DNA from: a virus
Taxonomy: Duplodnaviria > Heunggongvirae > Uroviricota > Caudoviricetes
Virus record (IMG/VR): IMGVR_UViG_2529292920_000022
Reading direction: 5' to 3' (one strand)
DNA: 20,795 bases
In this document: in pieces, positions 2,436-20,187 of the stretch
How positions within the stretch are numbered: the first letter of the stretch is position 1
Layout: every line of letters starts with the position of its first letter
Made by a program: the position numbers and the translations under genes
The notes under the pieces: model-generated
Database searches by the model: none
Told to the model about the DNA's origin: nothing
Seen by the model: the letters and a program-made list of their open reading frames with translations, nothing else

Positions 2436-2639
2436 ATGAACACCGACACTATTCCTACAAAAGGCTATATCAGACGCTTCCGCCTGGCTGAATTGCTGGG
2501 CGTTAGTGTATCCACCATCGACCGTAAAGTAAGAAACGGTTCACTACCACGTCCGGTAAAGCTGGGAGAAAAAATAACTGCGTTTGATGCGGTTGAGATT
2601 CACAACTGGCTGGCAGAACGCCGCGGGAAGGTGGCCTGA
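2436..2639 (+). CDS. alpA: AlpA-family transcriptional regulator / excisionase-like protein
   Basis: 67-aa ORF; the segment RRFRLAELLGVSVSTIDRKVRNGSLPRPVKLGEKITAFDAVEIHNWL matches the AlpA / MerR-like HTH pattern. Sits next to a P4-type integrase. The RBS region is flanked by an inverted repeat (CCCGTAAC ... GTTACGGG). Confidence 0.85.
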   Translation: MNTDTIPTKGYIRRFRLAELLGVSVSTIDRKVRNGSLPRPVKLGEKITAFDAVEIHNWLAERRGKVA

Positions 2640-2649
2640 TGGAAAAGAA

Positions 2650-3770
2650 AAACCGCCCATTACAGGCGGCTAATTCAGATATTCGCGTATCTGATGTTAC
2701 GCCCCTGACAAAATCCCTTCAAGCACCTGTATGGGTCCACCACATATTGCAATTTTTATTCTCTTTTAAAATATATTCCACGGGCGTCATTAGTGCGAGC
2801 GCCTTGTGGGGTCTTTTGCTGTTATACAGCACCAGATATTCCGCCAGCTTCTGGTTAAATAGCGCCAGATCTTCAAAGAGTAAAATCTCATTAAATTCAA
2901 TAAACTGCTCTCTTAACGTCCGGTTAAAACGTTCACAGATAGCGTTCATTTTTGGCGTGTAGGGATAGGTCCAGAGGTGTTTGATAGCGGCTTCCTGCAG
3001 CGTTTTGTCGAAGTTTCCCAGGAACTCTTTTCCGTTATCTGTGATTATCTGGCTGATACCGACCGGGAACAACCGGGCTGCGCGGCTGAAGAAGTGATTG
3101 ACGATATCACTGTTGAGTGACGGCACAGCCAGCGCCAGCGCGTAATTGCTGCATTCGTCGATCATGGTGATGACATAGCGACGCAGTTCGCCCATTCTGA
3201 GCTCAATGGCGTCCATCCCAATGAGCTCACCTGTCTTTACCGGGCGGTAGTGCTTTGGCCTGCGGGGTTTGGCAGACCGCTTTTTGACAAGCAGTGCCTT
3301 CCCCCGCGATCCCAGACGCACAGGTATCATCCGCATTTTATCATGTGCGGCAGCGATCATTCTGCCGATGGTGGAAACACTCGGACAGGCCAGATAGCGC
3401 TGTTCGCACCAGGGCTTCAGGCGAACAAAAATCTGCTCTTTACCGAGGTTCGGCAGCTCTGTCCTGAGGCGTCGAATCTCTTTCAGCACATCGGGATGCC
3501 AGTGTTTTTTTCGTCGCACCAGAGGTGCCTTACTGTGCGGGATTAGCCCCTCAGGTCCTTCCTTGTTCAGTAACTGACGCCACCAGTAAAGCGTGCGGCA
3601 GGACACGCCAAAGGCTTCAGAAGCTGCAGAAATACCGTGTTTATCCCAGAAGTGCAGAGCCTTCATTCTCATTGTTGCTATATCAGCCATCACTGAAAGC
3701 CTCAACGCATAATCGGCCGTTTGGTAGTACTTAGGATAGCCAACCATCAGATGCTGCATTTGCATAGTGC
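2650..3770 (-). mobile_element. IS481-family-like insertion sequence (single-ORF DDE transposase); boundaries approximate
   Basis: A single minus-strand ORF with an N-terminal HTH and an rve-type DDE core fills the gap between alpA and the next plus-strand gene. Imperfect inverted motifs near both ends (CATCAGAT-containing) are candidate terminal repeats. Exact ends and target-site duplication not resolved. Confidence 0.5.
2719..3765 (-). CDS. DDE transposase (rve / integrase core), IS481-family-like
   Basis: 348-aa ORF. N-terminal HTH (MADIATMRMKALHFWDKHGISAASEAFGVSCRTLYWWRQ) and candidate D, D, E residues (GMDAIEL, ITDNGKEF, NAICERFNRTL). The true start is probably the internal Met near 3690. 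Confidence 0.75.
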   Translation of the reverse strand: MQMQHLMVGYPKYYQTADYALRLSVMADIATMRMKALHFWDKHGISAASEAFGVSCRTLYWWRQLLNKEGPEGLIPHSKAPLVRRKKHWHPDVLKEIRRLRTELPNLGKEQIFVRLKPWCEQRYLACPSVSTIGRMIAAAHDKMRMIPVRLGSRGKALLVKKRSAKPRRPKHYRPVKTGELIGMDAIELRMGELRRYVITMIDECSNYALALAVPSLNSDIVNHFFSRAARLFPVGISQIITDNGKEFLGNFDKTLQEAAIKHLWTYPYTPKMNAICERFNRTLREQFIEFNEILLFEDLALFNQKLAEYLVLYNSKRPHKALALMTPVEYILKENKNCNMWWTHTGA

Positions 3771-3865
3771 AATCTCCCCTTACTTATCCGGAGGCAATTG
3801 CAATATCTCTGTGAACTTACACAGCACCAAAGCGCACACCGAAAAAGCATCGTGCCAGAGTCTAT

Positions 3866-4171
3866 ATGCTGCGTACTGGTATAGAGGGATGGACAGAAAA
3901 TGACATTCTTCGCTACTGCCGTCTGTCTTCTGGTCGTAACTATGCAACAGAGTTAGAACGCCAGCTTGGAATCACTCTGGAGCGTATCGACGAAAAGAAT
4001 CCTGATGGTATCGGAACACACCTTCGCTACCGTTTCTCCTGCCGTGGTGATGTTCTGAAAGTGATCACTCATGTTAACCATCTTGCGAACATAAATGATC
4101 ACAACGGACTTTCTCAGCAGGAAATTGCCGACATTCTGAAACTCTACCCGAACGCGTTTAACGCCGCCTAA
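3866..4171 (+). CDS. Hypothetical protein (101 aa); possibly a remnant of a gene disrupted by the IS
   Basis: Open frame immediately right of the IS with no convincing RBS at the annotated ATG. Confidence 0.35.
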   Translation: MLRTGIEGWTENDILRYCRLSSGRNYATELERQLGITLERIDEKNPDGIGTHLRYRFSCRGDVLKVITHVNHLANINDHNGLSQQEIADILKLYPNAFNAA

Positions 4172-4183
4172 CGGAGACTGAAA

Positions 4184-5017
4184 ATGAACATCGAAAAAAG
4201 CAGATTAATTTCTGAGGCCGCCCCTCATCTGAACGCCTCTCTGGGCACAATTAACGGTAATGAATTTGCCGCAATTGTCCCGGTTATTCCTGGTCATATC
4301 GGTGGGCGTGAAACCAATATTGTTAGCGCAAAAGCGTTACACAAAGCGTTGGGCGTGGGAAAAGACTTCTCTACATGGATCACTGATCGCATCTCTGAAT
4401 ATGACTTCACCATTGGGCACGATTACTCAGTCCATAAAACAATTTCCCCAAATTTGGGGAAAAGCCCGAATGGCGCGGCTTACAGCAAGATAAAGCACTC
4501 TGGCAGACCCGGCAAAGACTATCTGTTAAGTGTCGGAATGGCGAAAGAACTGGCAATGATCGAACGCAATGATCAGGGTCGCGCTATCCGCCGTTATTTC
4601 ATCCAGTGCGAGGAAGAATTACAGCGTACCGTGCCTGAAATCGCCGCCCGCTATCGTCGCCAGCTAAAAGCCCGTATTAGTGCCGCAAACAACTTTAAGC
4701 CAATGTGCGATGCGCTGAATATGGCCCGTGCCGAGATGGGGAAAATGACGCAGCAACACCACTACACAAACGAGAGCAATATGATTTCTCGTATCGTTCT
4801 TGGTGGGCTAACTGCTAAGCAGTGGGCGCGGATAAATGGCTATTCTGGCGAACCTCGCGACCATATGAACGCAGAACAGCTTGAGCACCTCTCATATCTC
4901 GAAAGCACCAATATCACGTTAATTGATATGGGCATGGAATATGAGCAGCGCAAAGGAGAACTCACCCGCCTGTCGCAACGCTGGCTCGCCAAGCGTCTGG
5001 AGGCGCTCAATGTCTAA
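4184..5017 (+). CDS. AntA/AntB-domain antirepressor-like protein
   Basis: 277-aa ORF. The segment KDYLLSVGMAKELAMIERNDQGRAIRRYFIQCEE and the preceding region match the AntA antirepressor domain pattern. Confidence 0.65.
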   Translation: MNIEKSRLISEAAPHLNASLGTINGNEFAAIVPVIPGHIGGRETNIVSAKALHKALGVGKDFSTWITDRISEYDFTIGHDYSVHKTISPNLGKSPNGAAYSKIKHSGRPGKDYLLSVGMAKELAMIERNDQGRAIRRYFIQCEEELQRTVPEIAARYRRQLKARISAANNFKPMCDALNMARAEMGKMTQQHHYTNESNMISRIVLGGLTAKQWARINGYSGEPRDHMNAEQLEHLSYLESTNITLIDMGMEYEQRKGELTRLSQRWLAKRLEALNV

Positions 5018-5189
5018 GCCAACAGGAACACCACAACCACAAAAACGCTACAAAGATGCCCACGGAGCACTCGTTACTGTCGAAAGCGTGTCTCACAACC
5101 GAGTGACGTTTTATCGCGACGGGTATCAATCGCCATGCGTACAACCGCTGGCGCGTTTCATGAAGGAGTTCGCGGAGGTTAACCAATGA
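5010..5189 (+). CDS. Small protein, DUF4222-like
   Basis: 59-aa ORF (MSKPTGTPQPQKRYKDAHGALVTVESVSHNRVTFYRDGYQSPCVQPLARFMKEFAEVNQ). GGAGG RBS 8 nt upstream; start overlaps the end of the upstream gene by 8 nt. Confidence 0.5.
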   Translation: MSKPTGTPQPQKRYKDAHGALVTVESVSHNRVTFYRDGYQSPCVQPLARFMKEFAEVNQ

Positions 5190-5619
5190 TACCCGTCCAG
5201 AAGAAGACATTTTCACTGGCTGGTATGTCGCCAAAATCCAGCAATATGACGGCAAAGTCAGGCATTAATACAGCAGATACAAGCAAAGTTTATCATTTGC
5301 TGGTGGTCGGAACGGATGCCTTAACCATACCAGAAATCTCGGGCGATGATATTAGCATTGAGAAGGTCAGCGGCTGCGCCAGAAAATTTCTGGTCGTAGA
5401 TGATGTCTTCCGCTCGCGTAGTGACTCCACAAAAACCTTCATCCGCGCGCGTGACGTTAACGAAATGAGCGCGATGTACTGTGCATCTGGTGCTTCCAAT
5501 AGCGAGTTTTCGGAGTCCATAAAAAAGAGCTTGCCGTTATGCGGCAACACGGTTTATGGTTATAAGGCACCTCATAAAACGGGTGCCGGGATTGGCGTCC
5601 TGGTAAATCGAATGGCGAC

Positions 5620-5847
5620 ATATGACGCGCCGAGCGTCTTTTTTTATGTCGTAGGTCTGACTCACCCATTTTTTGGGCGTTGGTGTATAATCCAGCGCCT
5701 TTGTCAATCAATGGTGGCTCAGGCAGGGGCTTCTTCGGAAGCGCCGGTATCCATTCGAGCCGGTTACGCCAACCCTGTCTGGGCTACCACCAGCGAAATT
5801 GGCGTTTCCGGTGGTAGCGTTACATGCTATCGAATGGAGGCTGCCAC
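5620..5847 (+). promoter_or_regulatory. Candidate terminator, promoter and structured leader upstream of the icd-like gene
   Basis: Short GC hairpin GACGC-GCCGA-GCGTC followed by a T7-8 run (about 5624-5645); extended -10 TGTATAAT (about 5684-5691); leader with a GCUUC-UUCG-GAAGC tetraloop hairpin and a 9-bp inverted repeat GCTACCACC / GGTGGTAGC; GGAGG RBS before the ATG at 5848. Confidence 0.3.
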
Positions 5848-6042
5848 ATGCTGGCTACTACCCCTACCCAAAAACCGCAATTTATCTGGATTATCGCCGC
5901 AGTTCGCCGCGATTGCCCGACAATTACCGCCAGAATTCATCATATTGCTGCCGAGTCTGAACGCGATGCTCGCCGTTCTCTGGTGCGCGATCACGTCTGC
6001 TTTTTTGCTGGTCGTATCCGCATGGAGGTGGCACATGATTAA
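5848..6042 (+). CDS. Icd-like (cell-division-inhibitor-like) small protein
   Basis: 64-aa ORF MLATTPTQKPQFIWIIAAVRRDCPTITARIHHIAAESERDARRSLVRDHVCFFAGRIRMEVAHD. The FxGR...V...H C-terminal pattern and size match Icd-like proteins of P1/P4-like elements. Good RBS. Confidence 0.55.
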   Translation: MLATTPTQKPQFIWIIAAVRRDCPTITARIHHIAAESERDARRSLVRDHVCFFAGRIRMEVAHD

Positions 6043-6253
6043 AACCTACGATGTGCATATGGATCCCCTCGAACGCACAAGCCAGATCATCACACTGACA
6101 GAAGTGATTAACGACATTCTGGTGAGCAACTCTCCCTCACGAGACGAAAGACTGAAGGCGTTACTCGCGATATTGGATCTCGCCGTTCGTGACGTTCATT
6201 TCCTGCTGGAAGGTGGCGAAATGCCAGTAAAAACGGGGGCAACCAATGAATAA
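6035..6253 (+). CDS. Hypothetical small protein (72 aa)
   Basis: ATG overlaps the icd-like stop (ATGATTAA); GGAGG RBS. It is the real 3' portion of the 355-aa ORF in the track, which I take to be a chimera. Confidence 0.5.
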   Translation: MIKTYDVHMDPLERTSQIITLTEVINDILVSNSPSRDERLKALLAILDLAVRDVHFLLEGGEMPVKTGATNE

Positions 6254-6440
6254 CTCAATTAATACCCCTCGCCTTACGTCCGCACTTCAATTAATCGAGC
6301 AAGCAGCGGCTGTCCTGGTTGCTGTCAGTCTTTCGGCTGAAGAAATGGACGCTACTGATGTCGTGGATGCGATTAAAGCGTGCTCATCTTTGGTTAACGA
6401 TGCCCGTGCAGAGCTGGTAATTCTTGGGGGTGAAAAATGA
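6246..6440 (+). CDS. Hypothetical small protein (64 aa)
   Basis: Start overlaps the upstream stop (ATGAATAA); part of a co-directional chain of coupled ORFs. Confidence 0.5.
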   Translation: MNNSINTPRLTSALQLIEQAAAVLVAVSLSAEEMDATDVVDAIKACSSLVNDARAELVILGGEK

Positions 6441-6700
6441 ATATCAACTTAATTTATCGTCATCCGTGTGAGCTGGAAATTGAATCATTGCTGAGCCGTG
6501 AAGAACCATATCCAGACACATTCACTCTTGCAGATCGCACGACTGAACGGCTTACCAGAGCGCGCACAGGTCTGGTTCATGTGATGAATGAGATTCTTCC
6601 ATCGGTGGGAGGGGAACAGGCGACAGTAATCACTAGCTGGCTACAAAAAGTTACCTCTCTGATAGATATCAGTTTAATCGATGCGGAGAGTGCGAAATGA
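6437..6700 (+). CDS. Hypothetical protein (87 aa)
   Basis: ATGA start/stop overlap with the upstream ORF. Confidence 0.5.
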   Translation: MNINLIYRHPCELEIESLLSREEPYPDTFTLADRTTERLTRARTGLVHVMNEILPSVGGEQATVITSWLQKVTSLIDISLIDAESAK

Positions 6701-6918
6701 CCAACATCCAGCTCATTGAAGCGCAATGTCGCATCGAACAGGTTCAGACTGTTTTAGGGTTCTGGCTTGAAGGGGCCAGCCCCAGCAACAGAGACAAGTT
6801 AATGATTGGCGCGGTTATGTCACTGCTCAATGGCGTACCAGAAGCTATTCAGGAAGCAGACGAATTGTTGGGCAAATATGAGTTACAGAATCATTCAGGC
6901 GAGGCGAAACATGAATAA
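6697..6918 (+). CDS. Hypothetical protein (73 aa)
   Basis: ATGA start/stop overlap with the upstream ORF. Confidence 0.5.
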   Translation: MTNIQLIEAQCRIEQVQTVLGFWLEGASPSNRDKLMIGAVMSLLNGVPEAIQEADELLGKYELQNHSGEAKHE

Positions 6919-7513
6919 TTTCTTAACTTTCCAGGCAGAAGCAACGCCTGACGGCGTAAACATCATGCACCGCAGCAACGATGGCATGACAGAACGCGTT
7001 GAGACCGTCTCATATATTGATGCCGTAAATCGTCTGGATGCCGAGGATTATGACGATAAACCAGATGAAGGTATGTCAATACATCTCGCTATTGCCGATG
7101 GCGGCAACCAGGGATATTTCGATTACACATCACAGCATAACGTCATTATGTGGAGATGGTTGATCGCAACAGTATTCATGCTGGAAATGAGAGAGGAAAA
7201 CGGCACTGTCAGCATCATTGATGATACTGGCAATCCTTCCGAAGTGGCTGTTTATTCCAACGGCATCGTCGCCATGCCGCTGTATCCAGTAGCAGAGCGC
7301 CTCGCTATGGCAAACAACATTGAGGGCGCGATGATAGAACGTTTTGGCATCGAGTCTGGCACAGAACGCTCCATCATTTTCTACAGAGCCATGATGGATG
7401 TGGAACAAGGAGCACTGACTCCATTTGGTCGTGAAACGCTTGCTGAACTTCACAACAGCTTTATAGCTGAACTGAATGAAAACGGCATGCCATCGGAACC
7501 AGTGACGCACTGA
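6911..7513 (+). CDS. Hypothetical protein (200 aa)
   Basis: Internal Met of track ORF 6806-7513; the start MNNFLTFQ overlaps the upstream stop (ATGAATAA). Confidence 0.5.
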   Translation: MNNFLTFQAEATPDGVNIMHRSNDGMTERVETVSYIDAVNRLDAEDYDDKPDEGMSIHLAIADGGNQGYFDYTSQHNVIMWRWLIATVFMLEMREENGTVSIIDDTGNPSEVAVYSNGIVAMPLYPVAERLAMANNIEGAMIERFGIESGTERSIIFYRAMMDVEQGALTPFGRETLAELHNSFIAELNENGMPSEPVTH

Positions 7514-7523
7514 GGATGGAACC

Positions 7524-7865
7524 ATGATTACTAAAAATTTCCGACTGAATGCGCTGGCAAATAAGTATGCGTCAGCACTGTATAACCACATTACCTCCAC
7601 CAGCGGCGGGGACTATTTCATGATTGATGCGGACGGAGAGGCCGTACGTGTGGAAATCGTCAATGGAGTAAAAGGCGTTCGCAGCCTGATCGATAGTTAC
7701 GCACTGGCAGCCATGAAAGTGTTCTACCCGCAGTGGGAAACCGTGGGGATCGAGCTTCTTGATCGTTGCGTCACTAAGGACAGATTGACTGACGTCGGGC
7801 GTGAGATATGGCAAAGCATGGTTAATGACATGGGCGCAACTGTAGCGGGAGGTTCTCATGCGTGA
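7524..7865 (+). CDS. Hypothetical protein (113 aa)
   Basis: Co-directional ORF in the pre-primase operon, with a short intergenic gap carrying an RBS-like GGAGGATGG. Confidence 0.5.
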   Translation: MITKNFRLNALANKYASALYNHITSTSGGDYFMIDADGEAVRVEIVNGVKGVRSLIDSYALAAMKVFYPQWETVGIELLDRCVTKDRLTDVGREIWQSMVNDMGATVAGGSHA

Positions 7866-8229
7866 AAATGCAGAAATGGCGCTTAGCTCCGCAATCGGAG
7901 AGCAGGTGGCAAAGATTGCTGGTGCTGTGTGGATTCATAACCTTCATTCTACTGGTGAAGAGAAAATGGCAATTCAGACGCCAGAGGGACGCACTATTAC
8001 TACATCTCTGAAGCCGTCAGATGTTTGTGATCTGATTTGCGCATTCATGTACCCAGCAATGAGGACTGTCCACGGCGATAAGTGGAAACTTGCGACAACC
8101 GCTGAATTTGATATGTGGCTAAACAATGATGGCATGCTGACTGATTACGGAATAACCAAGTGGCAGATGCTGGTTAGCCATATCGCAAACGCTATAGACC
8201 ACGTGGGGTACGGTGATGCGAAACATTGA
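7858..8229 (+). CDS. Hypothetical protein (123 aa)
   Basis: Start overlaps the upstream ORF end; its stop overlaps the primase start. Confidence 0.5.
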   Translation: MRENAEMALSSAIGEQVAKIAGAVWIHNLHSTGEEKMAIQTPEGRTITTSLKPSDVCDLICAFMYPAMRTVHGDKWKLATTAEFDMWLNNDGMLTDYGITKWQMLVSHIANAIDHVGYGDAKH

Positions 8230-10972
8230 TCTTATCCGTCAGGTTATCAGTGCGTCTGAAAACAACTGGCCTCATGTGCTGGGCTGCCTGAACATAAATG
8301 TCCCTGACTCTCCGCGCCGTCATGCTCCCTGCCCTGCATGTGGGGGCAAAGATCGATTCCGGTTCGATGACAACGGGCGCGGTAGCTTCATCTGTAATCA
8401 GTGCGGCGCTGGTGATGGGCTGGATTTAATTAAACGCGTAAATAACTGCGACACAACAGAGGCGGCGCTGCTTGCCGCTGATGTTCTGGGTATTGATTAC
8501 CGGACAACGGAAACACCAGAAGCCACCAGCCAGAAACGGGAACAACTGGAAACCGAGCGCCAGCAACGCGAACAGGAGCGCCTGAAAAGGGCGGAGAAGG
8601 ACGAACAACAAAGACGGGATACGTTTTCCCGTCAGTTTGATGACATGCGCAGAAAGGCTGTAAACGGCAAATCTGATTATCTGGTTGCGAAAGGGGTAGG
8701 TGATTTTACATTCCCCGTGTTGCCCGATGGATCTCTGTTGCTGGCGCTGGTGGATAAATCCGGCGCAGTCACAGCAGCACAGACTATTACCTCACATGGT
8801 GAAAAAAGACTCCTGACAGGTTCAGCAAAGCGGGGGGCATATCACGCCATAAACGCACCAGAAACAACACAGAGCATCTTAATCGCAGAAGGGCTGGCAA
8901 CGGCATTATCTGCCCATTTAATTCGTCCAGAGGCGCTGACAGTGGCGGCGATTGATGCCGGGAACCTGTTATATGTCGCCCAGGTACTGCGGGATAAATT
9001 TCCTTCAGCACAAATCATCATTGCTGCGGATAACGACCACAGCGAAGGAAGACAAAACACGGGGAGAATAGCAGCAGAAAAAGCAGCTTTATCTGTTTCT
9101 GGATGGGTGGCATTACCCCCGACAGGTCACAAAGCAGACTGGAATGATTACCACCAAAAACACGGCATTAAATGCGCCACAGAAGCGTTCAATAAGTCAA
9201 TGTACCAACCACAGGGTAATGGCGTGAAACAGGAGCCACAGACCATTGAGGGAAGCGATTTTAAGGTTATGGATACCGACCCACTGAAACCAAGAATAGA
9301 AAGCCGCGAGGATGGTATTTATTGGGTATCTCCGAGAGCTGACAGCCAGAGTGGAGAAATCATCAATAACGAAAGCTGGTTATGTTCTCCGTTAAGCGTT
9401 ATCGGTACTGGCAGAGACGATAAAGACCAGTATCTCATTCTTCGCTGGCTGTCGTTTGGTTCTGAAACGCCGACAACCGCTGCCATTCCACTGGCTGATA
9501 TTGGTGAACGTGAAGGATGGCGCACACTTAAAGCTGGTGGGGTAAATGTCACGACCAAAAGCAGCCTCAGAGCAATACTGGCAGACTGGCTACAACGCAG
9601 TGGCTCTCGTGAATTGTGGCGTGTTGCTCATGCCACTGGCTGGCAATGCGGAGCGTACATCATGCCTGATGGGGAAATCATCGGAACACCTGAAAATCCT
9701 GTGCTGTTCAGCGGGAGAAGCTCAGCCGCAGCCGGATATACCGTCTCAGGGAGCGCGCAAAGCTGGCGTGATAACGTGGCGCGTCTGGCCTTTGGTAACT
9801 ATTCAATGATGACCGGGATCGGCGCAGCACTGGCAGCACCATTGATTGGGCTGGTGGGCGCTGACGGGTTCGGCATTCATTTCTATGAGCAGTCGAGCGC
9901 AGGTAAGACCACCACGGCAAACGTGGCGAGCAGCTTATACGGCAACCCTGATTTACTGCGGCTGACGTGGTACGGAACCGCGCTGGGGCTGGCAAATGAG
10001 GCCGCCGCCCACAATGACGGACTAATGCCGCTTGATGAAGTTGGTCAGGGCGCTGATCCTGTCAGCGTTTCACAGTCTGCCTATGCGTTATTTAACGGTG
10101 TAGGGAAACTGCAAGGCGCTAAAGATGGTGGAAACCGGGATCTAAAACGCTGGCGTACAGTGGCAATCAGCACCGGAGAAATGGATTTAGAAACATTTAT
10201 CGCTACTTCCGGGCGAAAAACCAAAGCCGGGCAACTGGTGCGACTGCTGAATATTCCGTTGAGTAAAGCAGTACGCTTTCACGATTACCAGAACGGAAAA
10301 CAGCACGCAGACGCACTGAAAGACGCTTACCAGCATCACCATGGCGCAGCCGGGCGTGAGTGGATTAAATGGCTGGCAGACCACCAGCAACAGGCTATTA
10401 AAACTGTTCGTGATTGCGAAAGCAGATGGAGAAGCCTGATCCCACCCGATTATGGTGAGCAGGTTCACCGTGTAGCCGCGCGATTTGCCATTCTGGAGGC
10501 CGCATTGTTGTTAGGCGAGGTTGTAACAGGCTGGGATGCTCAGACATGCCGTGATGCGATACAGCACAGCTATAACGCATGGTTGCGCGAGTTCGGCACA
10601 GGTAACAAAGAGCATCAGCAGATTATTGAACAAACGGAGGCATTTCTTAATGCCTATGGGCTTAGCCGTTTTGCACCATTTCCATACAGCCCGGCAGATT
10701 TGCCCATCAAAGATTTAGCCGGATACCGTCAGCGTGGAGAACATGACGAAAGCCCAATGATTTTCTACACATTCCCGGCCACATTTGAAAAGGAGATCGC
10801 ATGTGGTTTCAACGCAAAACAGTTTGCTGAAGTGTTGAAAAAAGCCGGGATGCTAACCCCACCAAACAGCGGTCGTGGATACCAAAGAAAATCACCACGT
10901 ATTCAGGGACGACAAATAAACGTTTATGTACTCAATTACCAGCCAGGAGATTATAACTCATCTGAAGAATGA
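8213..10972 (+). CDS. Primase-helicase (P4 alpha-like: zinc-binding primase region, TOPRIM, C-terminal helicase domain)
   Basis: 919-aa ORF. N-terminal Cys cluster (CPACGGKDRF...CNQCG); TOPRIM-like acidic motifs (IAEGLATALS..., IIIAADNDHSEGRQNTG); Walker A-like GIHFYEQSSAGKTT and Walker B-like LMPLDEVG. The ATG at 8216 is the likely start (8213 is GTG). Confidence 0.9.
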   Translation: MMRNIDLIRQVISASENNWPHVLGCLNINVPDSPRRHAPCPACGGKDRFRFDDNGRGSFICNQCGAGDGLDLIKRVNNCDTTEAALLAADVLGIDYRTTETPEATSQKREQLETERQQREQERLKRAEKDEQQRRDTFSRQFDDMRRKAVNGKSDYLVAKGVGDFTFPVLPDGSLLLALVDKSGAVTAAQTITSHGEKRLLTGSAKRGAYHAINAPETTQSILIAEGLATALSAHLIRPEALTVAAIDAGNLLYVAQVLRDKFPSAQIIIAADNDHSEGRQNTGRIAAEKAALSVSGWVALPPTGHKADWNDYHQKHGIKCATEAFNKSMYQPQGNGVKQEPQTIEGSDFKVMDTDPLKPRIESREDGIYWVSPRADSQSGEIINNESWLCSPLSVIGTGRDDKDQYLILRWLSFGSETPTTAAIPLADIGEREGWRTLKAGGVNVTTKSSLRAILADWLQRSGSRELWRVAHATGWQCGAYIMPDGEIIGTPENPVLFSGRSSAAAGYTVSGSAQSWRDNVARLAFGNYSMMTGIGAALAAPLIGLVGADGFGIHFYEQSSAGKTTTANVASSLYGNPDLLRLTWYGTALGLANEAAAHNDGLMPLDEVGQGADPVSVSQSAYALFNGVGKLQGAKDGGNRDLKRWRTVAISTGEMDLETFIATSGRKTKAGQLVRLLNIPLSKAVRFHDYQNGKQHADALKDAYQHHHGAAGREWIKWLADHQQQAIKTVRDCESRWRSLIPPDYGEQVHRVAARFAILEAALLLGEVVTGWDAQTCRDAIQHSYNAWLREFGTGNKEHQQIIEQTEAFLNAYGLSRFAPFPYSPADLPIKDLAGYRQRGEHDESPMIFYTFPATFEKEIACGFNAKQFAEVLKKAGMLTPPNSGRGYQRKSPRIQGRQINVYVLNYQPGDYNSSEE

Positions 10973-10997
10973 GCTTCTTCATGTGCGTAGAAAAGGT

Positions 10998-11108
10998 GTT
11001 GGTTCAGTTGGTTCAGTTGGTTCAATTTGTAAAGAGTATTGTTTTATAAGGATTTTATTCTTTTTATTGAACCAACACTGAACCAACAACACGGTATTTT
11101 GAACCAAC
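10998..11108. repeat. Iteron array, putative replication origin (left copy of an inverted pair)
   Basis: Three tandem GTTGGTTCA 9-mers (about 10998-11024), a 44-bp AT-rich spacer, then three TGAACCAAC 9-mers (the reverse complement) at about 11069, 11079 and 11100. Lies immediately 3' of the primase gene. Confidence 0.6.
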
Positions 11109-11428
11109 ACAATGTGACTGAATTGATGCGCACAACACCTGGCTGGCATCAGAGAGTGTTTTACGAGACTTTCGTAAAATCCTGTGTACAAGGGCGTGAC
11201 GTTTTTGAAAGTGAGCACTACGAAATTTTCGTAGTTCAAAAAACAGCCTCTGAGAAGTTGTTATGCCTGTTCAGCAAACCATCCGCATAGCTGATCGCGA
11301 ATCAAATTACCAATGGAGCCAGAAGCAAGGGCAGAACTGAAAAGCGCCTGCCGTGAAGAGTAATGCGATACCATAAATATAGTTTTTAGAGTCCATAAAA
11401 AACCTGTCAAAACCTGACACACAGAACG

Positions 11429-11462
11429 ATGCCACCAGCTACTGAGCGGTGGCATTTTTTTG
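11429..11462 (+). terminator. Rho-independent terminator
   Basis: 8-bp stem ATGCCACC / GGTGGCAT with an 11-nt loop, followed by 8 or more T. Confidence 0.6.
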
Positions 11463-11556
11463 TGCTATTTGTTTCATATTTTGCAATTACGATGATGAAT
11501 ATTGCGATTTGTGAAACCATAATAACTGTTGTTTTATACAGTTCTAAGGGGGCGTT

Positions 11557-11718
11557 ATGGCTATTTCAGTAAAGCCGGTATTGATAAGTGAGAAGCAAAT
11601 GGAAGCGATAAAGAAAATTCAGGAAGAGCAGCGTAAAAAATCAGGAATTGGAGTAGCGCCAACTCTGCATGAAATTGCACGAGGGTTAATAGATAAGGCG
11701 CTGGCAGGCTGTATGTGA
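11557..11718 (+). CDS. Small hypothetical protein (53 aa), possible regulator
   Basis: ORF MAISVKPVLISEKQMEAIKKIQEEQRKKSGIGVAPTLHEIARGLIDKALAGCM with AAGGGGG RBS. Below the ORF-track length cutoff. First gene after the terminator and promoter-like AT-rich region. Confidence 0.4.
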   Translation: MAISVKPVLISEKQMEAIKKIQEEQRKKSGIGVAPTLHEIARGLIDKALAGCM

Positions 11719-11734
11719 AAATGGATGGCATCGC

Positions 11735-12196
11735 ATGGAACTAAAATTTATTGATAACCCTGTGCGATTACAGGCCTTTCTTAACGAGCCAGGCAATACC
11801 GAAAATATTGTTGAGCCGGGGCACACGTACTACATCAAGCCTGATGCGGTATATCTCGGCATCTACGAAGGATTAGTGCTGGCTGGCGTTCATGAAGTGC
11901 GTAACTTCTGGCATAGCGTTGTTGAATGCCATGCGGTGTACGACCCCGGATTCCGTGGTGAATATGCACTGCAAGGGCATCGATTATTCTGCAAATGGCT
12001 TCTCGAAAACTCACCATTCCTTAACAGCATCACCATGGTTCCTGACACCACCAAATACGGACGGGCAATTATCCGTTTGCTTGGCGCTACCCGTGTTGGT
12101 CACCTTGATGATGCTTATATCAGATGTGGTAAACCCGTCGGCGTAACGCTTTATCAGTTAACTCGGCAACAATATAAGGAATTCAGCGAATGTTAA
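11735..12196 (+). CDS. Phage virion-assembly-associated protein, P22 gp14-like by position (tentative)
   Basis: 153-aa ORF translationally coupled (ATGTTAA overlap) to the following three genes. Assigned by position in a gp14-gp7-gp20-gp16-like array; the sequence itself is not diagnostic to me. Confidence 0.4.
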   Translation: MELKFIDNPVRLQAFLNEPGNTENIVEPGHTYYIKPDAVYLGIYEGLVLAGVHEVRNFWHSVVECHAVYDPGFRGEYALQGHRLFCKWLLENSPFLNSITMVPDTTKYGRAIIRLLGATRVGHLDDAYIRCGKPVGVTLYQLTRQQYKEFSEC

Positions 12197-12867
12197 TTAC
12201 CCATATAGCTCATAAACATCTCAATCGTGCCGTATACGAAAAAGGCGGTGATGGTGGTGCCTCTAAAGCTCAGGCGAAGGCCCAGCAGCAGGCAATTGAT
12301 TTGCAGCGCGAGCAGTGGAATACGGTGATGAATAATCTCAAGCCGTATGCAGAAGTCGGATTGCCTGCTTTACAACAACTGCAAGGACTGATGACTCTGG
12401 AAGGGCAGAATAAAGCCGCGAATGATTTCTTTGGTTCTGGTTTATATAAAACACAGGCAGATCAGGCCCGTTATCAGAACCTTGTCTCAGCAGAAGCTAC
12501 CGGGGGGCTTGGCTCAACAGCTACCAGTAACCAGTTATCTTCCATTGCGCCCATGCTTTATAACAATTGGCTCAGTGGGCAAATGCAAAATTATGGAAAC
12601 CTGCTAAATGTCGGGATGAATGCGGCATCAGGGCAGGCAACGGCAGGGCAAAACTACGCCAATAATACCGGACAACTCTTGCAGGGGCTTGGCGCTATTC
12701 GTGCAGGTCAGGCGCAGCAGCCATCCAGTCTTGCGCGTGGTATTGGTGGGGCAGCATCAGGCGCTTTAGCGGGTGCGCAACTTGGTTCCGTTGTTCCTGG
12801 AATAGGAACTGCGGCCGGCGCTATTGGTGGTGGGCTTATTGGTCTTGTTGGGGGGCTTGGATTCTAA
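12190..12867 (+). CDS. Ejection (internal virion) protein, P22 gp7-like
   Basis: 225 aa (P22 gp7 is about 229 aa as I recall). Gln/Ala/Gly-rich with a Gly-rich hydrophobic C-terminus (GIGTAAGAIGGGLIGLVGGLGF). TAATG coupling to the next gene. Confidence 0.55.
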   Translation: MLITHIAHKHLNRAVYEKGGDGGASKAQAKAQQQAIDLQREQWNTVMNNLKPYAEVGLPALQQLQGLMTLEGQNKAANDFFGSGLYKTQADQARYQNLVSAEATGGLGSTATSNQLSSIAPMLYNNWLSGQMQNYGNLLNVGMNAASGQATAGQNYANNTGQLLQGLGAIRAGQAQQPSSLARGIGGAASGALAGAQLGSVVPGIGTAAGAIGGGLIGLVGGLGF

Positions 12868-14288
12868 TGGCGACATGGCAACTTGGCGGGCTGCCTAGCA
12901 TGGCACCGCAAAATGATAATGCTCCTCGTTCTTCCGTTCCTCAGCCTGTGCAGTATCAGCAGCAGCCAAACGTAGGTTTAATGGCGCTACAGGGGCTAAG
13001 AGGCGTTGCTGAGATTAATCAGCAGGCACGTCAACAACAGCGTAAATCAGAGTTTCAGAAAGCATATGCCGGGGCTTTTGAGTCTGGAGACAGAAACAAA
13101 ATGCGCAGTCTTATTTCTGAGTATCCAGAAGAATTTGAAAGCGTTCAGAAAGGGATGGGCTTTATTGATGACGACCAGAGAAATTCTATTGGTCATCTTG
13201 CGACTAGTGCTCAAATCGCATCTTCGCTCGGAACTGGGGCATTTGGAAAATTCATAGCAGATAACGAAGATGAAATGCGTCGCTTGGGAATTTCTCCTGA
13301 GTCTGTTGCCGAAATGCATGTTAATGATCCACAGGGATTCCAGCGGCTTGCTGGTAGTATGGCACTGTTTTCTCTCGGTCATGAGAAGTATTTCGATATC
13401 AAAGATCAAATGGAAGGTCGGGATATTGAGCGAGGCAGGCTGGCAGAGACAATCCGCAGCAATCAGGCTGGCGAAGCACTTCAGGCGAGAGGGCAGGATA
13501 TTAGCCGAGCAAATGCGTTAACGTCAGCATATGCACCAACAGCAGCAATGCAGAATTACAATCAGTACGCTCAAATGTTAAAGGCGGATCCAGAGGGGGC
13601 GGCGGCATTTGCGGCAGCGGCTGGAATTAATACAAACGCCAAAAAATTAATGAGTGTTAGAGAAAACGATGATGGCACTGTCACAAAATACTACACAGAC
13701 GGAAGTGAAGAGCAGGGAAAACTAAACCAGCCAATATCTGGAGATGGGTTTCGTCCAATAGCTTTGCCAACAGCCCAAAAGATCATGGAAAAGTCGCCAG
13801 AAGGGGCTAAAAAAGCTGCTGGATTTGCATACAGGGTTAGGGATGCTCTTGATTCAATAGATACACTGAAAGACCAGCTTAGCCCACAGCGAGTGGCGAT
13901 CATTAATAATGCTTTGGGTAATGGGACGCTGGCTAACTTAACGCTCAGCCCAACAGAGCAGCAATACGTTGTTAATGCTAATGACGCAATAATGGCAATA
14001 CTCCGTCAGGAAACAGGGGCAGCTATCGTACCTGCTGAAATGTCAAAATATTATCAAATGTATTTCCCTCAGCCTGGCGACTCCACAAAAACCATTGATA
14101 CCAAGCGCCGGAAGATGGAAAACCAGTTCAATTCGCTGAAAGCTGCTTCTGGTCGAGCTTATGATGCTTTGCGGGTTATTTCAGCAGTTGACAGAGGAAC
14201 GTCTTCTTCGTCGCAGACATTGCCGCAATCTGAGCAGGTATCACAGCCAGCAGCCAGCAGTAACTTTTCTTCACTATGGGGTGATTAA
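12867..14288 (+). CDS. Ejection protein, P22 gp20-like
   Basis: 473 aa (P22 gp20 is about 471 aa as I recall). Low-complexity Q/A-rich N-terminus. TAATG coupling on both sides. Confidence 0.55.
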   Translation: MATWQLGGLPSMAPQNDNAPRSSVPQPVQYQQQPNVGLMALQGLRGVAEINQQARQQQRKSEFQKAYAGAFESGDRNKMRSLISEYPEEFESVQKGMGFIDDDQRNSIGHLATSAQIASSLGTGAFGKFIADNEDEMRRLGISPESVAEMHVNDPQGFQRLAGSMALFSLGHEKYFDIKDQMEGRDIERGRLAETIRSNQAGEALQARGQDISRANALTSAYAPTAAMQNYNQYAQMLKADPEGAAAFAAAAGINTNAKKLMSVRENDDGTVTKYYTDGSEEQGKLNQPISGDGFRPIALPTAQKIMEKSPEGAKKAAGFAYRVRDALDSIDTLKDQLSPQRVAIINNALGNGTLANLTLSPTEQQYVVNANDAIMAILRQETGAAIVPAEMSKYYQMYFPQPGDSTKTIDTKRRKMENQFNSLKAASGRAYDALRVISAVDRGTSSSSQTLPQSEQVSQPAASSNFSSLWGD

Positions 14289-16393
14289 TGGCTAAAGCAT
14301 GGAAAGATGTTATCGCCTCTCCACAGTATCAGGCGTTAGCACCAGAACAAAAAGCGCAGGCTCAGGAGCAATACTTCAATGAAGTCGTTGCCCCGCAAGC
14401 CGGAGAAAGTGTAGAGCAGGCTAAGCAGGCTTTTTATGCTGCCTATCCACTACCATCAACGAATGAAATAGACCGATCCCAATCAGCAACTCAAAATATT
14501 CAACATACATCATCTGATAATTCTCTTGCGTCAGGGTATGCAAAGTTAGCTACTCAGCAAAGAGAGGGGCTTGAGCGTTCAGCAGAACAGGGAGCCAGTC
14601 TTGGGGCTGCGATGCGCGATGCTATAACAGGCGAAAGCCGAATGACTTCAGAGATGGAGAGACTGCAAAATGTCGCCTCTGCCCCAGAATTGAACTCACT
14701 AAGCATGGATGCCCTAAAGGCTGGATGGTCCCAACTTTTCGGCTCTGACGCGTCTCAGGAAAAGATTCTTCAGGGAATGGGGGCGACATTAAGGCAGGAT
14801 GAGAAGGGGAATACTATCGTTTCTCTGCCATCAGGTGATTATGCCCTGAACAAGCCGGGTTTATCACCGCAAGACCTGACTTCGTTTCTTGCTAATGCGT
14901 TGGCGTTTACACCAGCGGGCAGGGCTGGAACGGTGCTTGGTGCCATAGGAAAATCAGCAGCTACAGATTTAGCACTACAGGGAGCCACCAGCCTTGCTGG
15001 TGGAGAAGATATTGATCCGTTACAAACGGTAATTTCTGCTGGTATTGGTGGTATTGGTAAGGGGCTGGAAAATACAGCGAGTGCGGTTTCGAGGGCTGTT
15101 CGTGGTGATATGTCGCCTGAAGCAAAGGCTGCTGTCGACTTTGCATCGGAAAGAAATCTGCCGTTAATGACCAGTGACATGCTGAAAGATAAAACCTTTA
15201 TGCAGAGTCAGGCTCAGACATTAGGCGAAAGAGTTCCTTTTTTTGGAACCGGTAAGAATCGGCTGAATCAACAACAAGCACGAGAAAATTTAGTCAGAAC
15301 ATTTAGCGATGGTCTGGGTGGCATTTCTGATAAACAGCTTTATGAATCTGCGACTAAAGGGCAACAAAAATTCATTGAGGCAGCAGGAAAGCGATATAAC
15401 CGCATAATTGACGCTATGGGGGATACCCCTGTCGATCTCTCAAACACGGTAAAAGCTATCGACAATCAGATTGCCGTGTTAAGCCGCCCGGGCAAATCTC
15501 AGGATAGAGCCGCGGTAAAAGTCTTGCAGCAATTTAAAGACGATATCACCAGCGGACCAAATGACCTGCGCCTGGCGAGGGAAAACAGAACCGATCTTCG
15601 AAAGCGATTTATTGCGTCATCTGACACTGTTGATAAAGATACGCTCCAGAAAGCCAGCGATATTATCTACAAGGCATATACGGCGGATATGAAAAAAGCC
15701 GTAGCCAAAAATCTTGGAGCAGACGAAGCCATTAATATGGCAAGGGTTGATCGCTCATGGTCTAAATTCAATGACATGATGGGAAGAACGCGCGTTCAAA
15801 AGGCAATAGCCAGCGGCAAGGCCACGCCTGAGGATGTAACAAAACTCGTTTTTAGCCAAAGCCCATCAGAACGTTCTCAGCTTTACAGGCTTCTGGATGA
15901 CAATGGTAGGCAAAACGCACGAGCAGCCATAGTTCAGAATGCTGTAGATAAGGCGACTGATCCGTCTGGAAATATCAGTGTTGAGAAGTTTATTAATGCG
16001 TTACACCGGAACAGGAAGCAATCAGCAACTTTCTTTAAAGGCGTACATGGGAAGGAACTGGACGGCGTTATTAAATACCTCAACGATACAAGACACGCGG
16101 CAAAAGCGAACGTTCAAAACTTAAATGGTCAGCAGCTTTATGGATTGTTAGTTGGTGGTGGCATCATAAACGCAGCAGTATTAGCGGGGATGCTAAAAAC
16201 GGCTGCGTTTGTTGTTCCTGCTGCTGGTGCCGTAGGCGGAGCAGCGAAGGCATACGAAACCCCTGTTATACGAAATGCCTTGTTACGTCTGGCAAATACG
16301 CCAAAAGGTAGCACAGCATATGACAGAGCGATCAGTACGGTCACACAATCGCTCACCAGAGTCGCACAGGCATCACAAAAAGAAGCTCAATAA
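14288..16393 (+). CDS. Ejection protein, P22 gp16-like
   Basis: 701 aa. Ala/Gln/Gly-rich with a C-terminal hydrophobic Gly/Ala segment (LLVGGGIINAAVLAGMLKTAAFVVPAAGAVGGAA). Last gene of the four-gene coupled operon. Confidence 0.55.
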   Translation: MAKAWKDVIASPQYQALAPEQKAQAQEQYFNEVVAPQAGESVEQAKQAFYAAYPLPSTNEIDRSQSATQNIQHTSSDNSLASGYAKLATQQREGLERSAEQGASLGAAMRDAITGESRMTSEMERLQNVASAPELNSLSMDALKAGWSQLFGSDASQEKILQGMGATLRQDEKGNTIVSLPSGDYALNKPGLSPQDLTSFLANALAFTPAGRAGTVLGAIGKSAATDLALQGATSLAGGEDIDPLQTVISAGIGGIGKGLENTASAVSRAVRGDMSPEAKAAVDFASERNLPLMTSDMLKDKTFMQSQAQTLGERVPFFGTGKNRLNQQQARENLVRTFSDGLGGISDKQLYESATKGQQKFIEAAGKRYNRIIDAMGDTPVDLSNTVKAIDNQIAVLSRPGKSQDRAAVKVLQQFKDDITSGPNDLRLARENRTDLRKRFIASSDTVDKDTLQKASDIIYKAYTADMKKAVAKNLGADEAINMARVDRSWSKFNDMMGRTRVQKAIASGKATPEDVTKLVFSQSPSERSQLYRLLDDNGRQNARAAIVQNAVDKATDPSGNISVEKFINALHRNRKQSATFFKGVHGKELDGVIKYLNDTRHAAKANVQNLNGQQLYGLLVGGGIINAAVLAGMLKTAAFVVPAAGAVGGAAKAYETPVIRNALLRLANTPKGSTAYDRAISTVTQSLTRVAQASQKEAQ

Positions 16394-17567: not shown

Positions 17568-19928
<2,361 letters not shown>

Positions 19929-19959
19929 ATCAGTGAGTAATATCCATACAGTATACCAC

Positions 19960-19977
19960 TGTATAACACTGTTATAC
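19960..19977. promoter_or_regulatory. Candidate operator palindrome upstream of the RHH gene
   Basis: GTATAACA-C-TGTTATAC, a perfect 8-bp inverted repeat around one central base, about 35 bp upstream of the RHH gene start. A neighbouring CAGTATA / CTGTATA motif is related. Confidence 0.3.
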
Positions 19978-20030
19978 GCTCAAATATCAGCCAGAAAATA
20001 ACAGACCAATCACAAATCTATCGCTGTGTT

Positions 20031-20151
20031 GTTGGTTCAGAGCTGGGCTGTGTTGGTTCAAAATGAGTTGATGTTGGTTCAATATTTTAGAAAAAACACA
20101 ATAAAAACAACGCTCTTTACAAATTGAACCAACTGAACCAACTGAACCAAC
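20031..20151. repeat. Iteron array (right copy; inverted relative to the 10998-11108 array)
   Basis: Three GTTGGTTCA at about 20031, 20052 and 20073; an AT-rich spacer; then three tandem TGAACCAAC at about 20125-20151. The flanking CTCTTTACAAAT and CACCTTTT are the reverse complement of the left-copy flanks. Confidence 0.6.
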
Positions 20152-20187
20152 ACCTTTTTGCTTATCTATATAATCTGAGAGGCAGAA

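Follow-up and report, generated by a model that had tools for sequence, protein, structure and literature searches.

In the 20,795-nt viral window considered here (the whole stretch of DNA, to which all positions refer), antA and the DUF4222 gene following it are the last two genes of the tightly coupled alpA–orf143–antA–DUF4222 operon. The homologue of the c4–icd part of the P1 immI region, and also of the immunity region of P4, is the RNA immunity cassette downstream of this operon rather than ant. Tempting as it is to read ant beside icd as a P1 immI module, this proximity does not make one. The best explanation as a whole, which we consider rather probable, places antA in the Bro zone of an alpA operon, outside the C4 cassette, with an eta-like read-through of the latter and a DdrC-like Ant protein.

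The antA gene (4184–5017, plus strand) encodes a 277-aa protein of two domains, with matches in Pfam and PHROG. Residues 47–129 match the full length of the Pfam AntA model, PF08346 (76.4 bits, E 2.7e-21; the gathering cut-off is 27 bits), and two PHROG families labelled 'anti-repressor Ant', 5817 and 377, match as well. The original prediction of a 277-aa protein with an AntA-like antirepressor domain is thus supported, and indeed its coordinates, lengths and domain calls are all correct, far beyond chance. In the domain search that it suggested for this protein, the AntA model matches and KilAC yields no Pfam match even at E 0.1; the NCBIfam search produced no match. There are 7409 relatives at E≤1e-3, and both domains are conserved across the 33 full-length relatives that were aligned, all 33 of which have the Pfam AntA domain. 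The N-terminal domain (about residues 25–150) is of the AntA type, a beta-hairpin and a winged helix, whereas the C-terminal one (about 151–276) is an uncharacterised helical bundle, covered by no Pfam family in this protein or in any of the 33 relatives. The nearest phage homologues are those of Edwardsiella phage EPP-1 (63.5% identical) and Klebsiella phage P12620-1, and the neighbours of both are all hypothetical. No functional work on an AntA-domain protein, and no experimental study of this architecture, came up in the literature search.

The DUF4222 gene (5010–5189, plus strand) encodes a 59-aa protein (Pfam PF13973, 87 bits, E 5.8e-25). It overlaps antA by 8 nt, its ATG being situated within the last antA codons (ATGTCTAA) with a GGAGG Shine–Dalgarno sequence 7 nt upstream, so that the claim of a small DUF4222-like protein coupled to antA holds in both respects. 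The junction sequences show the geometry of coupling not only to antA, but also to the next ORF. The gene is present in EcCIMP1 and in the related loci L006, L007 and L009. Since tblastn gives no match in three other related loci (L008, L010, L011), the antA–DUF4222 pair is not obligatory. In our literature search five papers mention the family, though neither in their titles nor in their abstracts.

The first gene of the operon, alpA (2436–2639, plus strand), encodes an AlpA/Vis-like regulator (Pfam Phage_AlpA, 34 bits), and a terminator-like hairpin is situated just upstream of it (2337–2360). The alpA stop codon overlaps the start of orf143 (TGATG), encoding a hypothetical protein of 143 aa that has no match in Pfam, NCBIfam or PHROG; some records name this product 'PM1773 family'. 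In the window an insertion sequence cuts orf143 into a 5' part (2639–2727) and a 3' part (3829–4171), both on the plus strand, and the stop codon of the latter precedes the antA start by 12 nt; the gene is uninterrupted in E. coli strain 755 (L001 8918–9349) and in EcCIMP1. All junctions from alpA to DUF4222 are overlapping or 12 nt apart, with a Shine–Dalgarno sequence at each, and no terminator-like site was found on the plus strand between 2360 and 5624. The pairing of orf143 with antA is conserved in the Escherichia, Shimwellia, Enterobacter, Orbaceae and Gilliamella loci. No LexA box was found near antA or alpA. The perfect LexA match at 3809–3824 is situated at the end of the insertion sequence, and LexA control of these genes was rejected.

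The insertion (2728–3822, minus strand) belongs to the IS481 family, with a transposase matching rve, rve_3, HTH_32 and LZ_Tnp_IS481, and is flanked by a 6-bp duplication, AGCACC (2722–2727 and 3823–3828). It is specific to the window: the strain 755 copy, 100% identical in all else, lacks it. Since it separates alpA from antA, helper-induced expression of antA is probably impaired in this copy, and the island copy, carrying IS insertions, may be defective. Going further, one could suppose that antA and DUF4222, being cut off within their operon, are unexpressed and have no current role in this host, that is, are silent or decaying cargo. In agreement with that, the element interrupts orf143 on the opposite strand and is missing from the strain 755 island. 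However, the insertion appears to be recent, since both genes are intact and do not differ from those of the uninterrupted copy, and transcription outward from the element, or read-through of it, is possible. Moreover, the explanation would account for the window copy only, whereas the pair is intact in 615 of 5426 complete E. coli genomes (about 11%). We regard it as unlikely.

Between the DUF4222 gene and icd there are two RNA genes, both missed in the original prediction. The first is a leader RNA of the isrK family (5567–5644, plus strand; Rfam RF01394, 67.1 bits), the counterpart of P4 seqA and P1 a1/b1; its intrinsic terminator is situated at 5624–5638 and precedes a T-run. A PLE-like constitutive promoter upstream of it (TTGCCG, an 18-nt spacer and TATGGT; 5531–5560, plus strand) is putative, assigned by alignment to P4 only, where TATAGT is annotated as the '-10', a TTGCCT is recognisable by eye 17 nt before it, and isrK begins at a distance of 7 nt after it. 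Both boxes are weak, with four of six matches each, below the consensus scan; the window, EcCIMP1 and L006 do not differ in this sequence.

The second RNA gene is that of the C4/CI-type antisense immunity RNA (5707–5794, plus strand), a full-length match to Rfam RF01695 (79.5 bits, E 2e-14). Its upstream target copies are inside isrK, at 5592–5598 and 5608–5615, and the downstream ones, similar to a2/b2 or seqC and recognised by complementarity to C4, occupy 5799–5838 on the plus strand: TTGGCGT at 5799–5805 and TCGAATGGA at 5830–5838, the latter overlapping the GGAGG Shine–Dalgarno sequence of icd. The script used for this comparison recovers the annotated a1, b1, a2 and b2 sites of P1, and the two-site pattern, annotated in P1, is seen by eye in P4. 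The recognition elements of C4 (RNA positions 44–53 and 60–66) co-vary with the targets in six loci and P1; the target sequences differ among the window, L006–L010 and P1, while their complementarity and spacing are conserved. Given isrK and C4 with co-varying two-site targets, a c4–icd module homologous to P1 immI is present.

The icd-like, or kil-like, ORF (5848–6042, plus strand) matches the NCBIfam model phage_ICD_like with 71 bits. It is 64 aa long from the ATG at 5848, or 72 aa if the start is at 5824, and shares 28% identity with P1 Icd (pairwise E 5e-7); the same model assigns 52.6 bits to P1 Icd and 73.9 bits to the P4 Kil region. In the 100% identical copy of strain 755, RefSeq annotates antA, DUF4222 and the icd-like gene. 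The icd stop codon overlaps the ATG of an unannotated 72-aa ORF (6035–6253, plus strand) without a Pfam match, whose position is that of ant in P1 and of epsilon in P4; beyond it there are small helical proteins and the primase. The antA–DUF4222 pair had been placed upstream of icd: the Icd-like gene is there, though not adjacent, as about 660 nt with the promoter and two RNA genes lie between.

As in P1/P7 immI, the c4 gene is followed immediately by the icd ORF, and the targets have the a1/b1 plus a2/b2 geometry, the second downstream one being situated over the icd ribosome-binding site. The order in P1, however, is promoter–c4–icd–ant, and ant is an output of C4 control, translationally coupled to icd. 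In the window antA precedes the whole cassette; 690 nt separate its end, at 5017, from C4. Lying upstream of the cassette and outside it, antA therefore does not encode a C4-gated output as in P1. For a P1-style module, in which C4 blocks the translation of icd, and hence of ant, and loss of C4 control releases the antirepressor, one can cite the homologous C4, a/b sites and Icd-like ORF and the presence of an AntA-family gene less than 700 nt away. Yet the order is reversed, the ant–DUF4222 part ending at 5189, upstream of both C4 and the putative promoter, the genes after icd are those listed above, and the upstream position of antA is kept in four genera. Moreover, P1 Ant1/2 contain KilAC without an AntA domain, Ant1 carrying only KilAC, and no relation of the antA product to them was detected (BLASTP 22.7 bits, hhalign probability 0.2%). 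We consider this mechanism highly improbable. The 'P1-style immI module' of the original prediction thus stands as regards the c4–icd homology, which proves closer than had been supposed there, and falls as regards the position of ant and its relation to Ant1/2, and the analogy to icd–ant fails, the antA–DUF4222 pair being upstream of the cassette promoter, in the alpA operon. Homology of the antA product to P1 KilA and to Kapi1_032, as well as to Ant1/Ant2, was examined by BLASTP, Pfam and hhalign and rejected.

The same cassette also resembles P4: the Rfam matches to isrK and C4, the promoter geometry, an Icd-like Kil and the downstream primase operon are common to both. The order of the P4 region is retained, namely the promoter (by alignment only), the seqA leader/isrK, CI/C4, and seqC over the Kil/Icd start. 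Because P4 shares the arrangement of isrK, C4/CI and Kil, the c4–icd module need not be an import from P1. There are differences as well. In P4, epsilon follows kil, whereas no epsilon homologue was found in the island, neither among the small ORFs after icd nor elsewhere. In addition, the long ORF of P4 directly follows vis (alpA), whereas in the window orf143, antA and DUF4222 are intercalated, and the long ORF of the window is out of frame with icd.

This long ORF, 355 codons at 5186–6253 (plus strand), starts with an ATG overlapping the DUF4222 stop (ATGA, with a GGAGG Shine–Dalgarno sequence) and spans the promoter, both RNA genes and icd, up to the start of the next gene. In P4, likewise, the long ORF begins at the stop of the upstream gene, here vis, and spans the RNA gene, at the published position of eta (PMC10111431). 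One open frame of 293–428 codons crosses C4 in all six loci examined, and in the window, L006 and EcCIMP1 it is out of frame with icd; by our own estimate, the icd-crossing part would be open by chance in roughly 3% of cases. In one close comparison (11 differences, split 6/1/4), third positions are not clearly favoured over the first 115 codons, and the N-terminal third has no match. RefSeq labels the ORF an 'ash family' pseudogene, and its Pfam Phage_ASH match (residues 124–232, that is, nucleotides 5555–5882) covers isrK and C4. A conventional 'Ash' protein was rejected, as the match coincides with the two RNA genes; the 137-aa 'cI/ash' ORF of P4 matches the same Pfam family and is situated over the C4/CI RNA gene.

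The following scheme would account for this arrangement. The cassette would consist of the PLE-like promoter, the isrK/seqA-type leader with its terminator, C4/CI, the Icd/Kil ORF, the small ORFs and the primase. C4 would pair with two short sites, each present once in the leader and once over the icd ribosome-binding site, and in the resting island this pairing would hold the downstream replication operon silent. Ant would be produced solely upon firing of the alpA promoter; alpA of EcCIMP1 is induced by the helper and autoactivated (PMC11773190). The alpA transcript, covered by ribosomes through the ATGA-coupled ORF as in the case of P4 eta, could then extend across the immunity cassette by read-through and turn replication on.

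The island type is not new. Judged by sequence, this is a phage-inducible chromosomal island (PICI) of the EcCIMP1 type. EcCIMP1 is a PICI of E. coli MP1 with the P22-like phage vB_EcoP_Kapi1 as its helper (Pick, Stadel and Raivio 2025, PMC11773190), classified by its authors as a variant of PICI type C; helper-driven induction, excision and transfer were shown for EcCIMP1 itself (PMC11773190). Positions 3816–13027 of the window are 97.5% identical to it, and the annotated order is shared: int, alpA, the 143-aa ORF, antA, DUF4222, the 'ash' pseudogene, the Icd-like gene, six small ORFs, the TOPRIM/DUF927 primase, DUF2824, a gp7-like gene, ejection proteins and PerC. The antA/AntB gene of EcCIMP1 is annotated with the same length (834 nt). 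The two islands differ in the integrase and the attachment site (by yicC, as seen in the strain 755 copy, versus tRNA-Thr near proA in MP1), the distal end and the IS481-family insertion, which is found in the window and not in EcCIMP1. The original assignment to a P4-type island needs correction. This is not a P4-like satellite in the strict sense of the SatelliteFinder set (sid, psu, delta, epsilon, alpha, alpA, int): Psu, Sid, Delta and epsilon (Pfam Derepression) had no match among the scanned ORFs of the window in a general Pfam scan.

The four zones of Gram-negative PICIs follow each other in order: int with alpA, the Bro zone with immunity RNAs, the primase, and captured helper late genes. 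The Bro zone, between int/alpA and the replication genes, contains domain-shuffling genes of the Bro network (AntA, ANT, Phage_ASH and Phage_pRha among others), C4 and isrK, with the logic of P4 eta (Mageeney et al. 2023, PMC10111431). The window is one instance of it, with no essential difference. The architecture of AntA plus a helical bundle, and DUF4222, are absent from that analysis (PMC10111431). The synteny alpA–orf143–antA–(DUF4222)–isrK–C4–icd–primase holds in four genera. As a discovery the finding has little weight: hundreds of genomes carry annotations of the antA–DUF4222 pair, of the genes around it and of this type of island, and two papers describe them.

The role of Ant in a satellite of P22-like phages is an ordinary question. 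The original prediction suggested that an antirepressor could derepress the helper prophage or sense its induction. The molecular activity of Ant, as well as that of the DUF4222 protein, is something that we infer. Satellite antirepressors have precedents: RstC of the Vibrio satellite RS1 is one, and P4 epsilon (Pfam Derepression) is an established case. By analogy, Ant could derepress a resident helper, P22-like or lambdoid, independently of SOS by binding its CI/C2-type repressor. This might happen when the island arrives in a lysogen, or else serve as a feed-forward lock after alpA has been switched on. The family name and the PHROG labels point in this direction, P22 Ant and P1 Ant are real antirepressors of the same domain-shuffling network (PMC10111431), no epsilon homologue was found elsewhere in the island, and its late genes are P22-like (84%, 58% and 35% identical to Kapi1_055 to Kapi1_057). 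On the other hand, the C-terminal domains of P22 Ant (P22_AR_C) and P1 Ant (KilAC) are absent from Ant, whose own C-terminal domain is in no characterised family, there is no LexA box nearby, and in EcCIMP1 antA is behind a promoter that requires prior helper induction. The whole EcCIMP1 island, rather than this gene, changed neither the induced Kapi1 titres nor cI-lux, and a Kapi1-like prophage occurred in only 2 of 21 other EcCIMP1-carrying strains in the authors' database search (PMC11773190). On this evidence an antirepressor role is possible, if rather doubtful. Kapi1 has antirepressors of its own, with the domains Rha+KilAC and Bro-N+P22_AR_C; in the tblastn search of island proteins against Kapi1 only int, DUF2824, gp7 and gp20 match.

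The predicted structure leads to the DNA-binding side of the preferred explanation. In the AF2 model of Ant (pLDDT 86), the N-terminal beta-hairpin and winged helix would derive from the KilA-N/Bro-N/AntA network, while both domains together appear to resemble DdrC of Deinococcus radiodurans (PDB 7qvb, 7udi, 8u0g), the only significant PDB match to the predicted fold (12–17% identity, TM 0.3–0.45). No sequence similarity to DdrC was detected, and neither the protein alone nor the 33-member profile matched any PDB chain at E≤1. The domain orientations differ, as reflected in the TM range, and the likeness, being at the level of fold only, does not establish homology. DdrC is a DNA-binding protein induced by DNA damage, with biology unrelated to that of Ant, and according to its authors its winged helix does not contact DNA (PMC9303277). 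The model suggests that Ant is no less likely a DNA-binding regulator than a protein that binds a repressor. Binding of the helper repressor is the main alternative, and a protein–protein role is possible because the Bro network includes true antirepressors, among them P22 Ant and P1 Ant. The stronger version, in which Ant is a DdrC-like dimeric DNA-binding protein of a widespread phage and satellite family, with the AntA domain joined to a conserved, unnamed helical bundle, and does not bind repressors at all, we put forward tentatively. Such a protein might compact, bridge or mark the replicating helper or island DNA, or repress the late or ejection genes of the helper. If this is true, DdrC, an 'orphan' repair factor of Deinococcus, gains its first relatives, in mobile elements.

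Finally, the C4 cassette of the window is about 40% diverged from that of EcCIMP1 over some 250 nt, while the surrounding DNA is about 98% identical. As the cassette is swapped, heteroimmunity between the two islands is predicted. With the C4/target cassette exchanged in an otherwise nearly identical background, nature provides in them a clean pair for testing how specific RNA-based immunity is in PICIs.

The antA gene (4184-5017, + strand) encodes a 277-aa protein, Ant, that matches the PHROG "anti-repressor Ant" families and carries, at aa 47-129, the Pfam AntA domain (PF08346, 76.4 bits) anticipated in the original prediction. It overlaps by 8 nt (ATGTCTAA) the DUF4222 gene (5010-5189, + strand; 59 aa, Pfam DUF4222, 87 bits), whose ATG is preceded at 7 nt by GGAGG. 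The Icd-like ORF (5848-6042) scores 71 bits with the NCBIfam model phage_ICD_like and is 28% identical to P1 Icd. In E. coli strain 755, RefSeq annotates the same three genes in a copy that is 100% identical. Given these matches, the overlap and the RefSeq record, the AntA-domain gene, the small gene coupled to it and the Icd-like gene are all real. Of 5426 complete E. coli genomes, 615 contain 80% or more of antA-DUF4222.

The region 3816-13027 is 97.5% identical to EcCIMP1, a PICI of E. coli MP1 with the P22-like phage Kapi1 as the helper that induces and transduces it (PMC11773190), and the annotated gene order is the same. Excision and transfer of EcCIMP1 need alpA, the alpA-lux reporter is switched on with helper induction and not with mitomycin C alone, and the island alters neither Kapi1 titres nor cI-lux (PMC11773190). 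The four-zone plan of Gram-negative PICIs was already defined by Mageeney et al. 2023, including a Bro zone with domain-shuffling AntA/ANT/Phage_ASH genes and the C4 and isrK RNAs (PMC10111431). The order alpA-orf143-antA-(DUF4222)-isrK-C4-icd-primase, where orf143 encodes a hypothetical protein of 143 aa, is kept in Escherichia, Shimwellia and Enterobacter; a locus from the Orbaceae retains orf143, antA, C4 and primase, and DUF4222 has no match in three of the related loci. This gene arrangement has been described in print before and carries annotations in many genomes.

Between DUF4222 and icd lie two RNA genes, isrK (5567-5644, Rfam, 67.1 bits) and the C4 antisense RNA (5707-5794, Rfam, 79.5 bits). 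Two elements of C4 each have two complementary sites, the first within the isrK leader and the second immediately 5' of icd: for positions 60-66 these are 5592-5598 and 5799-5805, and for loop positions 44-52 they are 5608-5615 and 5830-5838, the last of which overlaps the GGAGG of icd. The same script recovered this four-site geometry, with differing sequences, in five related loci and in P1, where its output was exactly the annotated a1, b1, a2 and b2 sites. Since the target sites co-vary with C4, there is good evidence, from sequence comparison, that the antisense pairing is under selection. The candidate promoter (5531-5560; TTGCCG, 18 nt, TATGGT), placed by alignment with P4 only, occupies the same position as that of P4, where the "-10" TATAGT is annotated 7 nt before isrK and TTGCCT lies 17 nt further upstream. 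Like the window, P4 yields isrK and C4 matches, two-copy complementarity to its C4 loop is seen by eye, and its Kil region fits the Icd-like model (73.9 bits). Judged by these sequence features, every part of a P1/P4-type switch is present in the C4 cassette.

A third conserved complementarity involves 7-10 nt just 3' of C4 (5810-5818 with 5783-5791), which can pair with the closing stem of C4 at its 3' arm and mimic the 5' arm. It recurs at the same offset (+16 to +19) in the related loci L006-L010; all the PICI loci have it, as does P4 by eye, but P1 does not. It may serve as a processing signal or form an alternative fold in the precursor.

The original prediction likened the three genes together to the icd-ant region of P1/P7. 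A module homologous to the P1 immI c4-icd is indeed present, its layout being that of the P4 immunity region; however, the likeness is confined to the RNA-icd cassette. The location of ant differs from that in P1, and its product is not a P1-type Ant. The P1 operon reads promoters, a1/b1, c4, a2/b2, icd and ant1/ant2, with ant overlapping the icd stop, whereas antA-DUF4222 lie before the candidate promoter of the cassette and end at 5189. P1 Ant1 has the KilAC domain only, and its comparison with Ant gives 22.7 bits in BLASTP and a profile-profile probability of 0.2%, so a relationship of the two proteins was rejected. Where P1 has ant and P4 has epsilon, the window has a 72-aa ORF (6035-6253, + strand) that is not annotated and whose ATG overlaps the icd stop. 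It has no family match, and a helical structure is predicted for it as for the next three small ORFs; neither it nor the small ORFs 3' of icd match the P4 epsilon family.

Upstream, the genes follow one another almost without gaps: alpA and orf143 overlap at stop and start, 12 nt separate the orf143 stop from antA, and the DUF4222 stop overlaps the ATG of a 355-codon ORF (5186-6253; ATGA, with GGAGG ahead), matching the overlap of the vis stop with ATGATGATG in P4. No terminator-like site was found on the + strand from the hairpin preceding alpA (2337-2360) to the isrK terminator. By analogy with P4, a similar read-through logic would apply, with orf143-antA-DUF4222 inserted after alpA and ahead of the long, eta-like ORF.

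Across isrK and C4, a single frame remains open in the window and in five related loci, with a length of 293-428 codons. The four loci that are more distant have this ORF in frame with icd and sharing its stop, as described for P4 eta/kil, whereas in the window and L006 it is out of frame with icd and ends at the next gene. In the window, the 72-aa ORF is in the frame of the long ORF. The ORF is annotated as "ash family, pseudogene", with Pfam Phage_ASH at aa 124-232, that is, nt 5555-5882, covering both RNA genes. In the P4 records, the corresponding homologous region bears the label "put. ash gene" or "cI gene product (aa 1-137)"; this 137-aa ORF matches the same Pfam family and overlies the P4 C4/CI RNA gene, the immunity factor CI being now known to be an RNA (PMC10111431). 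As the Phage_ASH matches fall on RNA genes in both elements, genes annotated as "Ash family protein" in E. coli genomes correspond for the most part to RNA genes lying within an eta-like ORF. Among temperate phages, isrK and C4 also lie inside a long ORF in Salmonella phage 118970_sal3 (2149-3291 of the compared locus) and in SfV orf37 (2143-2979). The sal3 ORF runs on into a Rha-family regulator domain, and therefore the C4 cassette there is inside a Bro-network regulator gene, not upstream of a replication operon. Another RNA, the int-alpA motif (RF02996, 1269-1335, + strand, 60.6 bits), lies directly 3' of the integrase gene and is also found in L005, L006, L010 and L011.

The stretch 5591-5836 is about 40% diverged from L006 (7408-7653) and EcCIMP1 (reverse strand), with no indels and the frame still open, amid DNA that is about 98% identical. 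In the long ORF, EcCIMP1 can be aligned base for base to L006, and the start codon is kept. Compared with EcCIMP1, the window cassette is changed in its recognition elements, in both target copies and in the spacer between; the promoter, terminator and icd show few or no differences. The pattern resembles a swap of the cassette that sets immunity specificity. Because C4, the spacer and the target copies differ, the window island and EcCIMP1/L006 are predicted to have different immunity specificity, that is, to be heteroimmune.

Ant has 7409 relatives among 1.84 billion representative proteins. In 33 full-length relatives the AntA domain is conserved together with a C-terminal domain that has no Pfam family (motif R...GK.T..HHY.NE....LG....RD.L...QL..L......N..L...G....RK). 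The AlphaFold model (pLDDT 86, pTM 0.70) features a beta-hairpin, a winged helix, long connecting helices and a helical bundle. Its only significant matches among solved structures are chains of DdrC, a Deinococcus DNA-binding protein for which the structure authors knew no structural homologues; DdrC may thus be related to this phage/satellite family. No LexA box was found near antA, and no similarity to Kapi1's own antirepressors. On these grounds and the predicted fold, a DNA-binding regulator is a tentative first choice, short of even chances, a repressor binder is rather unlikely, and the remainder goes to other functions. What keeps the locus of value is the function of this conserved satellite protein, whose predicted fold is DdrC-like, and the natural swap of the immunity cassette.

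This copy also carries an IS481-family element (2728-3822, - strand; 6-bp duplication AGCACC), missing from the 100% identical island of strain 755, that splits orf143 and parts alpA from antA. It probably impairs helper-induced expression. Its right end and the target duplication form, by chance, a perfect LexA-box-like palindrome (3809-3824).

The late zone (11735-16393, + strand) encodes homologues of P22-type internal/ejection proteins: DUF2824, gp7 and a gp20-type translocase (84%, 58% and 35% identical to Kapi1_055 to _057), and a gp16-like DNA-transfer/transglycosylase protein. A satellite with its own ejection proteins is unusual, and these may be linked to the superinfection immunity reported for EcCIMP1 (PMC11773190). 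The distal end (17793-20475) holds further mobile-element debris, namely an rve/HTH_38 transposase (17793-18815) and an IS21 IstB fragment (18880-19542), and a PerC-family activator (20188-20475, 114 bits); EcCIMP1 likewise has a PerC-family regulator.
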